This document shows positions 914 through 4,340 of a DNA stretch of 4,824 nucleotides, piece by piece (position 1 is the stretch's first letter; the number at the start of each line of letters is the position of its first letter). Below the pieces are notes generated by a model. The model was not told the DNA's origin, made no database searches, and was given only the letters and a program-made list of their open reading frames with translations. The stretch is from a virus (taxonomy: Duplodnaviria > Heunggongvirae > Uroviricota > Caudoviricetes), in IMG/VR virus record IMGVR_UViG_2534682256_000009, one strand, 5' to 3'. A program made the position numbers and the translations under genes.

Positions 914-1212
914 CGGGCAAAGAGGCAATTATTCATTACCTGGGGACGCATAAGAGCTTCTGTGCACAGGACGTTGCCGCGGTAACAGGTGCAACCGTAA
1001 CCAGCATAAATCAGGCTGCGGCTAAAATGGCGCGGGCAGGAATCCTGGTCGTTGATGGTAAGGTCTGGCGAACGGTGTATTACCGGTTCGCTACCAGAGA
1101 AGAACGGGAAGGAAAGGTGAGCACGAATCTGATTTTTAAGGAGTGTCGCCAGAGTGCCGCGATGAAACGGGTATTGAGGGTATATAAAAGAACATCAATG
1201 GGTACACAATGA
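910..1212 (+). CDS. ren: Ren-like protein (lambda ren homologue), 100 aa; extreme C-terminus may be altered by the downstream insertion
   Basis: ORF starts MTGKEAIIHYLGTH...VTSINQAAAKMARAG...VWRTVYYRFATREEREGK, recognised as lambda Ren. ATGA overlap with the P stop (910-913) and an AAGGAG SD upstream. Lambda ren is 96 aa by my recollection, whereas this ORF is 100 aa and ends where composition shifts. Confidence 0.8.
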   Translation: MTGKEAIIHYLGTHKSFCAQDVAAVTGATVTSINQAAAKMARAGILVVDGKVWRTVYYRFATREEREGKVSTNLIFKECRQSAAMKRVLRVYKRTSMGTQ

Positions 1213-1229
1213 TGAAACAGGTGAGTTGA

Positions 1230-1264
1230 GTTCAAACTGTAGTACAATTCTCTCCAGTTTGAAC
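1230..1264. repeat. Perfect 10-bp inverted repeat GTTCAAACTG-N15-CAGTTTGAAC at the left composition junction, 16 bp upstream of the emrE start
   Basis: Read directly: gttcaaactg (1230-1239) and its exact reverse complement cagtttgaac (1255-1264), separated by a 15-nt spacer tagtacaattctctc that contains a TACAAT hexamer (1243-1248). Confidence 0.7.
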
Positions 1265-1279
1265 AGGAAAGAATATGTT

Positions 1280-1612
1280 ATGAACCCTTATATTTATCTT
1301 GGTGGTGCAATACTTGCAGAGGTCATTGGTACAACCTTAATGAAGTTTTCAGAAGGTTTTACACGGTTATGGCCATCTGTTGGTACAATTATTTGTTATT
1401 GTGCATCATTCTGGTTATTAGCTCAGACGCTGGCTTATATTCCTACAGGGATTGCTTATGCTATCTGGTCAGGAGTCGGTATTGTCCTGATTAGCTTACT
1501 ATCATGGGGGTTTTTCGGCCAACGGCTGGACCTGCCAGCCGTTATAGGCATGATGTTGATTTGTGCCGGTGTGTTGGTTATTAATTTATTGTCACGAAGC
1601 ACACCACATTAA
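1280..1612 (+). CDS. emrE: EmrE, small multidrug resistance (SMR) family efflux transporter, 110 aa
   Basis: Translation from ATG 1280 is MNPYIYLGGAILAEVIGTTLMKFSEGFTRLWPSVGTIICYCASFWLLAQTLAYIPTGIAYAIWSGVGIVLISLLSWGFFGQRLDLPAVIGMMLICAGVLVINLLSRSTPH, recognised as E. coli EmrE with the membrane-embedded Glu in the first helix. AGGA SD about 10 nt upstream. The longer 128-aa ORF in the track starts at an upstream TTG (1226) and is not the likely start. Confidence 0.93.
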   Translation: MNPYIYLGGAILAEVIGTTLMKFSEGFTRLWPSVGTIICYCASFWLLAQTLAYIPTGIAYAIWSGVGIVLISLLSWGFFGQRLDLPAVIGMMLICAGVLVINLLSRSTPH

Positions 1613-1641
1613 AAATAATTTCTTTTAAAAGACTGCAATAT

Positions 1642-1675
1642 GGCGGTTCATATCTTTACATGGGCCGCTTTTGTT
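1642..1675 (+). terminator. Candidate intrinsic terminator downstream of emrE
   Basis: Imperfect hairpin 1642-1650 / 1661-1669 (core GCGG/CCGC plus A-U, C-G and wobble pairs, 10-nt loop) followed by TTTTGTT, about 30 nt after the emrE stop. Stability not computed. Confidence 0.4.
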
Positions 1676-1856
1676 AATGTTTTTAGTTTTTGTGTATTCT
1701 TTTGTGCCTTCAAGATTATTGCGTAAGCAAATTGCAATACGATTATTGTTGTATATTCAAGATAGTGTGATCGTAATTGTCTTTTTAAATAAAAATTAAA
1801 CAAAAATTATATCTCACCACTAAGGTTTATAAAAGCATAAGTTAGCAGGTGTCACC

Positions 1857-3383
1857 ATGAAAAAAGCCATAGCATATATGCGATTTTCATCACCAGGTCA
1901 GATGTCTGGCGACTCATTAAACCGACAGAGAAGACTTATTGCTGAATGGTTAAAGGTAAATAGTGATTATTATCTTGATACCATAACATATGAAGATTTA
2001 GGATTAAGTGCATTCAAAGGAAAGCATGCACAATCAGGAGCTTTTTCGGAATTTTTAGATGCTATAGAGCATGGTTATATATTGCCAGGAACTACATTGT
2101 TAGTTGAAAGTCTGGACAGACTTTCAAGAGAAAAAGTCGGTGAAGCGATTGAACGTCTGAAATTGATTTTGAATCACGGTATTGATGTTATAACTCTTTG
2201 CGACAATACAGTCTATAATATTGACTCTTTGAATGAGCCATATTCATTAATAAAAGCCATACTTATAGCACAAAGGGCAAATGAAGAAAGCGAGATAAAG
2301 TCAAGTCGGGTTAAATTATCATGGAAGAAAAAACGGCAGGATGCACTGGAATCAGGTACGATTATGACGGCGTCTTGTCCGAGATGGCTCTCCTTAGATG
2401 ACAAAAGAACGGCTTTTGTTCCAGACCCCGACAGGGTGAAAACTATTGAGCTAATTTTTAAACTCAGGATGGAAAGGCGCTCATTGAATGCAATAGCCAA
2501 GTATTTAAATGATCATGCTGTAAAGAATTTCTCAGGAAAAGAAAGTGCATGGGGGCCTTCTGTAATTGAAAAATTATTAGCGAATAAAGCTCTGATAGGT
2601 ATATGCGTACCTTCATATCGTGCAAGAGGGAAAGGGATAAGTGAAATCGCTGGCTATTATCCCAGAGTCATATCAGATGATTTGTTTTACGCTGTACAGG
2701 AAATTCGGTTGGCACCTTTTGGTATTAGCAATAGTAGCAAGAATCCTATGCTAATAAATCTACTTCGAACAGTTATGAAGTGTGAGGCTTGTGGTAATAC
2801 CATGATTGTTCATGCGGTATCTGGAAGTTTGCATGGCTATTATGTTTGTCCGATGAGAAGATTACATCGATGTGACAGGCCATCAATAAAGAGAGATTTG
2901 GTTGATTATAATATCATTAATGAATTGCTTTTTAATTGTAGCAAAATTCAACCAGTTGAAAACAAGAAAGATGCTAATGAAACTTTAGAGTTAAAAATTA
3001 TTGAGCTTCAGATGAAAATTAATAATTTAATCGTTGCATTGTCTGTCGCGCCTGAAGTTACCGCTATAGCAGAGAAAATAAGACTATTAGATAAGGAATT
3101 ACGAAGAGCTTTGGTATCATTGAAAACTTTGAAGAGTAAAGGTGTAAATTCATTCAGTGATTTTTATGCTATTGACTTAACCAGTAAAAATGGACGAGAG
3201 TTATGCCGTACACTTGCCTATAAAATATTCGAAAAAATCATAATTAATACGGATAATAAAACCTGTGATATCTATTTTATGAATGGCATTGTTTTTAAAC
3301 ACTATCCTTTAATGAAAGTAATATCCGCCCAGCAGGCGATAAGTGCTCTCAAATATATGGTTGATGGTGAGGTTTATTTTTGA
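1857..3383 (+). CDS. ybcK: Large serine recombinase (resolvase/invertase catalytic domain, recombinase domain, zinc ribbon, coiled coil), 508 aa; corresponds to DLP12 ybcK
   Basis: N-terminus AIAYMRFSSPGQ...SLNRQ aligns with the resolvase catalytic motif YxRVSTxxQ (putative nucleophile Ser11). ESLDRLSRE matches the conserved DRLxR motif. C-terminal half has a Cys cluster KCEACGN...YYVCPMRRLHRCD and a predicted coiled-coil stretch. AGGTG SD 5 nt before the ATG. Strongly AT-rich codon usage. Confidence 0.9.
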   Translation: MKKAIAYMRFSSPGQMSGDSLNRQRRLIAEWLKVNSDYYLDTITYEDLGLSAFKGKHAQSGAFSEFLDAIEHGYILPGTTLLVESLDRLSREKVGEAIERLKLILNHGIDVITLCDNTVYNIDSLNEPYSLIKAILIAQRANEESEIKSSRVKLSWKKKRQDALESGTIMTASCPRWLSLDDKRTAFVPDPDRVKTIELIFKLRMERRSLNAIAKYLNDHAVKNFSGKESAWGPSVIEKLLANKALIGICVPSYRARGKGISEIAGYYPRVISDDLFYAVQEIRLAPFGISNSSKNPMLINLLRTVMKCEACGNTMIVHAVSGSLHGYYVCPMRRLHRCDRPSIKRDLVDYNIINELLFNCSKIQPVENKKDANETLELKIIELQMKINNLIVALSVAPEVTAIAEKIRLLDKELRRALVSLKTLKSKGVNSFSDFYAIDLTSKNGRELCRTLAYKIFEKIIINTDNKTCDIYFMNGIVFKHYPLMKVISAQQAISALKYMVDGEVYF

Positions 3384-3736
3384 GTAATAATCACTTTTTC
3401 AACCGTGCTATGGTATGAAAGTAAAGTAACTACTATGATATTAACTATCGAGCAAGAATATCCCCAGGCACTCAACAGGGCGCAGGTCAACGTGAATCGG
3501 TCATGACACGACACCGATTTTGCGGAATCAATGTTGCTTATGAATACAACATCCCGCTTAGTACATGTTCAACACATCAGCAAATTTTGAACTGGGTGTG
3601 GCACTTAACTGAAAAAACATGGATGACACAAAATGTTACTCGTCGCTTCATTGAAGTAGCTTGTGGATATCACAAGCTAGACTATCGCCAATGATATTCA
3701 ATTTTTGATTTTTTAGTATCAACCTTCCATAATAAT

Positions 3737-3765
3737 GTCACCGGAGCTTGAACAACTCCGGTGAC
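3737..3765. repeat. Perfect 10-bp stem hairpin GTCACCGGAG-N9-CTCCGGTGAC; function unknown (RNA structure, protein-binding site or recombination site)
   Basis: Read directly: gtcaccggag (3737-3746), loop cttgaacaa, ctccggtgac (3756-3765). Followed by ttctgcgcattt, not a clean U-tract. Lies about 25 bp upstream of the ylcH-like start. Confidence 0.6.
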
Positions 3766-3789
3766 TTCTGCGCATTTAAGGGGACTTAA

Positions 3790-3888
3790 ATGCGACCACA
3801 ATCTGAACTCCTTACCTTGTCACAGATGCAGAAATGCACCTGCGATGTCTTGCATCCAGCGTTTGATCTCTGCGGAGGTGAAGCGTGA
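3790..3888 (+). CDS. ylcH: Small ORF (32 aa) translationally coupled to the downstream gene; ylcH-like
   Basis: ATG at 3790 preceded by an AAGGGGA SD. Encodes [32 protein letters not shown]. Its TGA (3886-3888) overlaps the GTG start of the next gene (GTGA). Position matches the small ylcH gene upstream of ybcN in DLP12 by recollection. Not in the supplied ORF track, presumably because of its size. Confidence 0.45.
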
Positions 3889-4340
3889 ACCTCCCACAAG
3901 ATGGCATCAAATTACATCGCGGTAACTTCACCGCTGTCGGTCAGCAGATCCAGACTTATCTGGAAGACGGCAAATGCTTTCGCATGGTGCTTAAACCGTG
4001 GCGCGAGAGACGCAGTCTTTCCCAGAATGCACTCAGCCACATGTGGTACAGCGAAATCAGTGAATACCTCATCAGCAGGGGGAAATCGTTCGCTACTTCA
4101 GCATGGGTAAAAGATGCTCTCAAACACACATACCTCGGTTATGAAACCAAGGACCTGGTTGATGTCGTAACCGGCGAAATCACTACTATCCAGTCGTTAC
4201 GCCATACCTCCGATCTTGGTACCGGAGAGATGTATGTCTTCCTGTGTAAGGTTGAAGCCTGGGCGATGAATATTGGCTGCCACCTGACTATTCCACAGAG
4301 CTGCGAGTTCCAGCTGCTGCGTGACAAGCAGGAGGCGTAA
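3885..4340 (+). CDS. ybcN: YbcN-like nin-region protein, 151 aa (DLP12 ybcN, reported as a DNA base-flipping protein)
   Basis: 151-aa ORF with GTG start and a strong GGAGGTG SD 6 nt upstream. Length and position (before ninE) match DLP12 ybcN. Stop TAA overlaps the ninE ATG (TAATG). Confidence 0.78.

Follow-up and report, generated by a model that had tools for sequence, protein, structure and literature searches.

The emrE promoter of a DLP12-like lambdoid prophage overlaps a perfect inverted repeat whose symmetry is not conserved

Background

Lambdoid phages carry morons, among them bor and lom of lambda and the morons of the HK97 type; the latter were reportedly described by Hendrix and colleagues. 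The emrE gene studied here resembles these elements in that it lies between conserved phage genes, is absent in close relatives, has a lower G+C content, a promoter of its own and a hairpin that resembles a terminator, and is transcribed and expressed while the phage is a prophage. It differs from them in two ways: in phages a gene for a large serine recombinase accompanies it, and the emrE cassette by itself persists in another prophage remnant of the chromosome, by fliE.

Palindromic operators overlap the core promoters of some efflux genes, examples being the IR1 site of QacR at qacA and the tetO site of TetR. The dyad upstream of emrE likewise extends over the -10 hexamer and transcription start of a gene for drug efflux, but its arms are 25 bp apart from centre to centre, its symmetry is not conserved, and we found no cognate repressor.

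Serine recombinases act at sites of 26 bp (hix and gix), 28 bp (res site I) or around 40–50 bp (attB and attP of the large serine integrases). The repeat at the emrE locus is similar to these sites in overall length and in its inverted-repeat character, and a large serine recombinase gene lies 0.6 kb away from it. In contrast to such sites, the repeat described here has an odd spacer and no conserved partner, lies off the module boundary, and is kept where the recombinase is lacking.

Quasipalindromes that are hotspots of template switching in E. coli have reportedly been characterized by Ripley and by the Lovett laboratory. As in those cases, the repeat upstream of emrE is imperfect in relatives and perfect here, and three differences in its right arm appear to run toward complementarity. 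Its 15-nt loop is, however, longer than in the classic quasipalindrome reporter hotspots, and the direction of change is not securely rooted.

The emrE product is a textbook small multidrug transporter, and the regulation of its gene has barely been described. We have analysed emrE and its surroundings in a 4,824-nt stretch of viral DNA (the window). A first-pass annotation, made from the letters of the sequence, had pointed to a perfect inverted repeat with a -10-like hexamer in its spacer, and had offered two readings of it, an operator or a serine recombinase crossover site. The present analysis locates the promoter for future work: emrE is probably a self-promoted moron, with its transcription start inside a palindrome that is not conserved.

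Results and discussion

Organization of the emrE locus

The window belongs to a DLP12-like lambdoid prophage. The gene order, established from the list of open reading frames (ORFs) and from annotated matches, is replication protein P, ren, emrE, ybcK, ninB and ninE. The principal genes are:

212–913, replication protein P (ORF list and annotated matches)
910–1212, ren (ORF list and annotated matches)
1280–1612, plus strand, emrE coding sequence, a 110-amino-acid SMR efflux transporter (ORF list and RefSeq annotation of identical DNA)
1857–3383, ybcK, a 508-amino-acid recombinase (ORF list and annotated matches)
3885–4340, ninB/ybcN (ORF list and annotated matches)

A DLP12-like defective prophage adjoining icd in O157-type E. 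coli matches the window with 100% identity. The identity of the window to the DLP12 prophage of strain K-12 is 97% over positions 999–3422, and the K-12 DNA has no differences from the window over 1203–1276, repeat included. The order ren-emrE-ybcK is also found in viable lambdoid phages, namely 4A7, Lambda_4C10, 1W, 3W, Perceval, Turner and the PhiR phages.

Several minor features accompany these genes. A small ORF between emrE and ybcK (1671–1799) corresponds to ylcJ in the K-12 annotation or to a hypothetical protein in O157-type strains, and the emrE-ybcK spacer is reported to be bound by H-NS and to contain an RpoD SELEX promoter (PMC3946193). Within emrE, positions 1302–1318 read GTGGTGCAATACTTGCA, a published sigma-54 ChIP-seq site that is intragenic and in the sense orientation in K-12 (PMC4591121). 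Just 5' of ninB/ybcN are two adjacent perfect 10-bp inverted repeats (3737–3765 and 3771–3794), the first of which is called terminator-like on the minus strand; both sit where homology to other nin regions picks up again.

Boundaries of the island and of the emrE cassette

Base composition changes across 1100–1400, where the G+C content falls from about 0.50 to about 0.36; the island as a whole ranges from 0.28 to 0.46, against about 0.50–0.57 in its flanks. The island junction was placed by BLAST and alignments:

1185–1203, unstranded, left junction zone of the island

Homology to the ren genes of phages that lack the island (lambda, 21, H-19B, HK140, SfI and others) stops at 1185, within the 3' end of ren, and nin-region homology picks up again at about 3703. 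The last nine ren codons (1186–1212) are therefore island DNA. It turns out that the inverted repeat, which had been placed at the left junction of the island, begins 45 bp downstream of the point where ren homology ends. The Ren proteins of island-bearing phages are chimeric, with a slightly longer C-terminus (100 amino acids in all).

A cassette with emrE and without ybcK, corresponding to positions 1203–1620 and 92% identical to the window, is present in around 2,500 of 5,426 complete E. coli genomes, including 536 and CFT073, and sits there between fliE and ybcL-ybcM; 1203 is the point from which the fliE-locus copy and the window have sequence in common. Since the repeat lies inside this cassette, it is to be assigned to emrE rather than to the recombinase. 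The ybcK module is separate and extends from about 1621 to 3422–3449; the sequences that follow beyond about 3449 fall into at least four unrelated right-flank families. The module boundaries are thus 1185, 1203, 1620 and 3422–3449. In E. coli 536 the fliE-yedK region (L001, 5001–7150) holds an emrE-ybcL-ybcM-porin remnant that has diverged by around 8% from the phage-borne emrE.

A perfect inverted repeat between ren and emrE

The 10-bp inverted repeat described earlier is present and perfect, in the form GTTCAAACTG-N15-CAGTTTGAAC at 1230–1264. Its parts, read directly from the sequence and numbered also from the mapped transcription start (see below), are:

1230–1239, unstranded, left arm GTTCAAACTG, -26 to -17
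1240–1254, 15-nt spacer TAGTACAATTCTCTC
1255–1264, unstranded, right arm CAGTTTGAAC, -1 to +9, holding the transcription start

The arms cannot be extended, because positions 1229 and 1265 are both A. Fifteen nucleotides separate the repeat from the emrE ATG at 1280.

As a control for chance, 500 dinucleotide shuffles of the window were searched for perfect 10-bp repeats with spacers of 3–30 nt. The shuffles contained 0.18 such repeats per window on average, and 60 of the 500 (12%) had at least one, against four in the real window (1230–1264, 2104–2127, 3737–3765 and 3771–3794). For a stretch as short as the 67-nt ren-emrE spacer this corresponds to around 0.0025 expected repeats, a value computed after the repeat had been seen. 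A chance occurrence of the repeat in the ren-emrE spacer is unlikely.

Promoter and transcription start of emrE

The second feature noted earlier, a -10-like hexamer in the spacer, is borne out by transcript data: TACAAT lies at 1243–1248, and a start mapped by Cappable-seq follows 7 nt downstream. The elements in and around the repeat are:

1221–1226, plus strand, candidate -35-like hexamer GTGAGT, weak (three of six matches, with a TGA core), 16 bp before the -10 hexamer
1243–1248, plus strand, -10 hexamer TACAAT, five of six matches to TATAAT, at -13 to -8 (sequence and mapped start)
1256, plus strand, primary emrE transcription start, an A (Cappable-seq; 5' untranslated region of 24 nt)
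1265–1271, plus strand, Shine-Dalgarno sequence AGGAAAG, directly after the right arm and conserved in all Escherichia copies
1642–1669, plus strand, terminator-like hairpin followed by a T-run, 3' of emrE (consensus match only)

Cappable-seq, which captures 5'-triphosphate ends only and was used with an RRS cut-off of 1.5 (corresponding to about 20 reads), identified a 5'-triphosphate start in E. coli K-12 at U00096.2 position 567514 on the plus strand, with an RRS of 12.9 and a log2 enrichment of 3.77. The emrE ATG is at U00096.2 position 567538, so that the start lies 24 nt upstream of it, at A1256 of the window. The start maps are K-12 data and were carried over to the window through identical DNA. 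Kim et al. (2012) gave a start at 567508, 30 nt before the ATG and equivalent to C1250, from two reads, and the upstream sequence that they printed ends in GTAGTACAATTC.

A start at A1256 makes TACAAT the -10 hexamer. The start has the preferred pyrimidine/purine pair, with C at -1 and A at +1, and the locus shows two marks of a sigma-70 promoter, a -10 hexamer close to TATAAT and a 5'-triphosphate start within the expected 6–8 nt beyond it. From the sequence we infer that GTGAGT serves as the -35 element and that the promoter depends on sigma-70; the left arm then falls between the -35-like and -10 hexamers. This -35 element is rated weak because a promoter consensus scan of the window called no promoter at the 5' region of emrE. 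TTGAGT (1226–1231) and TTCAAA (1231–1236) were also considered as -35 hexamers and were set aside, both having the wrong spacing to any -10-like hexamer.

The promoter and start of emrE are already in public start-site datasets. The first-pass annotation, which took the site to be unreported, was mistaken in this respect; its claim stands for the palindrome itself, of which we found no description in the literature.

Folding of the repeat in RNA

Transcription could also enter emrE from the phage early operon through ren, and in such read-through transcripts the repeat may form a hairpin, directly 5' of the emrE ribosome-binding site, that affects stability, processing or translation. The 35-nt RNA alone does fold as a stable hairpin (-11.9 kcal/mol, z = -5.2), which ends one base before AGGAAAG, and in one survey of promoters renD-emrE counts as a single transcription unit. 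However, the same region within a 101-nt context is unremarkable (z only -0.29), the hairpin leaves the ribosome-binding site and start codon free, and it is lost in other Escherichia species. Furthermore, the emrE promoter's own mRNA starts within the right arm and lacks the left arm, and hence cannot form the hairpin. We give such a regulatory hairpin only a slender chance of being correct.

The repeat has no U-tract and so is no terminator. A role as intrinsic terminator for ren was set aside in particular, since the AT-rich stem is followed by AGGAAAGAAT, with no T-run, and the site is absent from the terminator scan. An Rfam search of the whole window returned zero matches at E <= 1, which speaks against a known RNA family or riboswitch.

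A conserved RNA stem was considered as well. With G-U pairs allowed, 83.8% of cells were paired, a value reached by none of 500 shuffles, and a few positions had changed on both sides of the stem, although the sequences are related and the structure was taken from one aligned row. This candidate was rejected: the count is inflated by G-U pairs and relatedness, and by folding the hairpin is gone outside E. coli.

Conservation of the promoter and of the symmetry

The upstream regions of emrE were gathered irrespective of the repeat, with one genome per species, which gave 80 emrE-like loci. A homologous upstream region was found in E. whittamii, E. ruysiae, Escherichia sp. E1V33, E. albertii and Citrobacter murliniae. 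Conserved among the Escherichia copies are GGTGA, the left arm (changed in E. albertii), TAGTASAAT and the ribosome-binding site; TAGTASAAT, around the -10 hexamer, is kept in all of them and in Citrobacter murliniae also. The left arm reads the same as in the window in E. coli 536, E. whittamii, E. ruysiae and Escherichia sp. E1V33. The right arm varies more than any other part of the region. In strain 536 it is CAGTATGAAC and nine of ten positions pair, which is also the state of the repeat in the roughly 2,500 E. coli genomes that have emrE beside fliE and lack ybcK; in E. whittamii, E. ruysiae and E1V33 it is CGGTATTAAC, with seven of ten Watson-Crick pairs; and in E. albertii the right arm CGGAATTATC pairs at five of ten positions with the changed left arm. 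Starting from the perfect form of the window, the predicted hairpin energy goes from -11.9 through -8.2 to -2.3 kcal/mol across these lineages, and E. albertii is without an equivalent hairpin. Judged from these alignments, the pattern of conservation reads as that of a promoter, and not as that of a palindrome.

Within the lambdoid lineage the repeat is nearly uniform. Of around 121 ren-linked viral contigs, 108 have the perfect form, 11 carry TTTCAAACTG and two carry GTTCAATCTG, and every ren-linked genome inspected has a perfect repeat apart from the single-arm variants given below. A comparison of other copies had been proposed as a check on the repeat: the perfect form recurs in 108 of the 121 ren-linked contigs, and in the other emrE lineages pairing falls to between nine and five of ten. 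Five single-arm variants were found in E. coli and its phages. The left arm reads TTTCAAACTG, GTTCAATCTG or GTTTAAACTG in three of them and is interrupted by IS2 in a fourth, while the fifth has CAGTATGAAC as its right arm; none of the five has a compensating change in the other arm. The IS2 element is found in strain SF10 (L223, around 2490–2505), within the left arm after a point equivalent to about 1233 of the window. Together with a 9-bp insertion in a paraquat-evolved K-12 line (see below), it makes the repeat region a recurrent insertion target.

Between the E. whittamii-type and the window-type right arm there are three differences, all of which raise complementarity to the unchanged left arm; on the sequence evidence these could reflect selection or template-switch correction of a quasipalindrome. 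In the emrE tree, strain 536 falls outside the clade of E. whittamii, E. ruysiae, E1V33 and the ren-linked copies, and the direction of change is consequently ambiguous. A directional perfecting of the palindrome is therefore suggestive, yet it was not adopted, the ancestral state being ambiguous on this tree. Compensatory flips at arm positions 2 and 7 in E. albertii were likewise discarded: position 2 is a G in another E. albertii-like sequence (L197), and the double-flip signal is thus unstable. No other relevant locus came out of the one metagenome scan.

More distant emrE-like genes in Citrobacter and Kluyvera (L013–L020; 75% amino acid identity) have an upstream region that is otherwise unrelated, yet it holds GTTCAAACTC. 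The region also has a repeat of its own, TTGTGA-N21-TCACAA, around a -10-like hexamer, 60–100 nt before the start of the emrE-like gene.

emrE as a probable self-contained moron

We consider it likely that the 35-bp segment is the core promoter of emrE together with its first transcribed bases, that emrE is a self-contained moron between ren and the nin genes, and that the symmetry is young and most probably neither a dedicated protein-binding site nor a recombination site. In the proposed mechanism, sigma-70 RNA polymerase would use TACAAT (1243–1248) as the -10 element, with a weak -35 element near 1221–1226, and transcription from A1256 would yield a leader of 24 nt that carries AGGAAAG as its ribosome-binding site. 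Functionally, the arms would then be distinct, the left one being promoter spacer DNA and the right one the start site and initial transcribed sequence. The perfect symmetry would be young in the E. coli/lambdoid lineage and would not be maintained by selection; it may be fortuitous in origin, or may have arisen by quasipalindrome correction through template switching. The comparisons suggest that no protein binds the repeat.

The unit matches a classical moron, that is, an autonomous transcription unit within a phage operon. Conserved phage genes flank it, related phages (lambda, 21, H-19B, HK140 and others) lack it, and it has its own start site, deviant G+C content and, by consensus match only, a terminator-like hairpin at 1642–1669. 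The paper on prophage Perceval found emrE to be expressed in the lysogen and termed it a moron, and emrE has been described as a resistance gene in two lambda-like phage genomes.

A possible operator at the emrE promoter

An alternative is that the repeat is an operator, at which a dimeric or tetrameric repressor (from the host or the phage, possibly YbcK) covers -26 to +9 and shuts the emrE promoter until its release. With one arm before the -10 hexamer and the other at the mapped start, the dyad overlaps the core promoter as an operator does; the repeat stands out statistically and is shared by almost all ren-linked copies; and its perfect form accompanies ybcK. Slight support comes from a paraquat-evolved K-12 line without emrE amplification, which has a 9-bp insertion 39 bp before emrE, at around 1241 of the window and hence in the spacer. 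The authors of the paraquat study deem this insertion consistent with IS1 insertion, and they report that the transcript was unchanged with it, which counts against an operator.

The comparative evidence also runs against such an operator. The lasting symmetry that would mark one was not found: in orthologous promoters pairing declines from nine to seven to five of ten, and the variants are uncompensated. The arm centres are 25 bp apart, around 2.4 helical turns, so that the two half-sites would point to different sides of the helix. We found no cognate repressor, whether adjacent or already known. A ChIP-exo study covered YbcM together with 39 further candidate regulators; in the accessible part of it, emrE is absent from the targets, and YbcM was set aside as a regulator of emrE on that ground. 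The same arms at other spacings occur in viral contigs at chance level only; these scans gave five unrelated matches, approximately the chance expectation, and so no sign of a regulon. As to the co-occurrence of the perfect form with ybcK, copies without ybcK being imperfect, we give it little weight because it comes from a single lineage.

The expectation that a dimeric protein bound here would occlude the promoter thus holds as far as position is concerned, the arms at -26 to -17 and -1 to +9 covering the core promoter, but there is no sign of a protein that uses the symmetry, and the right arm decays without compensation. On balance an operator is unlikely. A more specific version, in which the palindrome is a recent operator of the lambdoid lineage, bound by YbcK or another phage or host protein and tying emrE expression to the state of the prophage, we regard as distinctly improbable. 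If true, it would explain why the perfect form occurs only beside ybcK and why insertions arose under paraquat selection. An operator would also imply a specific regulator of emrE, the first of its kind, and would show a prophage in control of a resistance gene.

The repeat and the serine recombinase gene ybcK

The other reading offered for the repeat was a crossover or binding site of the adjacent large serine recombinase, YbcK, which would mark one end of a mobile island made up of emrE and ybcK. In YbcK the Resolvase, Recombinase and zinc-ribbon domains are all present, and 35 bp is within the size range of serine recombinase sites. Moreover, the recombinase-proximal flank, with which a comparison had been suggested, does contain a second repeat, GTTCAACA-N10-TTTTGAAC at 3567–3592, on the other side of ybcK. 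The two repeats have a GTTCAA/TTGAAC core in common, and no hexamer of the window apart from GTTCAA has two repeat sites of this kind. The chance expectation of the second repeat in the window is around 0.015.

The second repeat is, however, restricted to the right flank of the O157 type, and was rejected as a partner recombination site for this reason. It lies within a segment (3450–3703) found in O157-type prophages only. K-12 DLP12, the phages 4A7 and Turner and 72 of the 80 viral contigs with ybcK all lack this repeat; in the eight contigs that have it, it stands at two distances, +184 or +1078 from the ybcK stop codon. The two sites also differ in overall length (35 versus 26 bp).

The repeat upstream of emrE fares no better as one half of such a pair. 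It travels with the emrE cassette in around 2,500 genomes without ybcK, and it is not at any of the module boundaries (1185, 1203, 1620 and 3422–3449). All ybcK copies found are ren-linked, and so give no sign of independent insertions. With arms and spacer of 10, 15 and 10 bp, the dyad of the 35-bp repeat falls on base pair 1247 and not on a central dinucleotide, which makes it unfit for a symmetric 2-bp staggered cut, although this is weak evidence since natural sites are imperfect. A partner site, a dyad on a central dinucleotide and a module boundary linked to the recombinase, as would be seen at a crossover site, are all lacking here. The proposal of a serine recombinase site is thus not supported, given the retention of the repeat without ybcK, its position off the boundary, the 72 of 80 contigs without a partner and the odd spacer; we judge it very unlikely and not worth further pursuit.

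Across 80 viral contigs the ybcK gene itself keeps an identity of at least 97%, and viable lambdoid phages carry it too. One DLP12-like prophage has a site-specific integrase as well.
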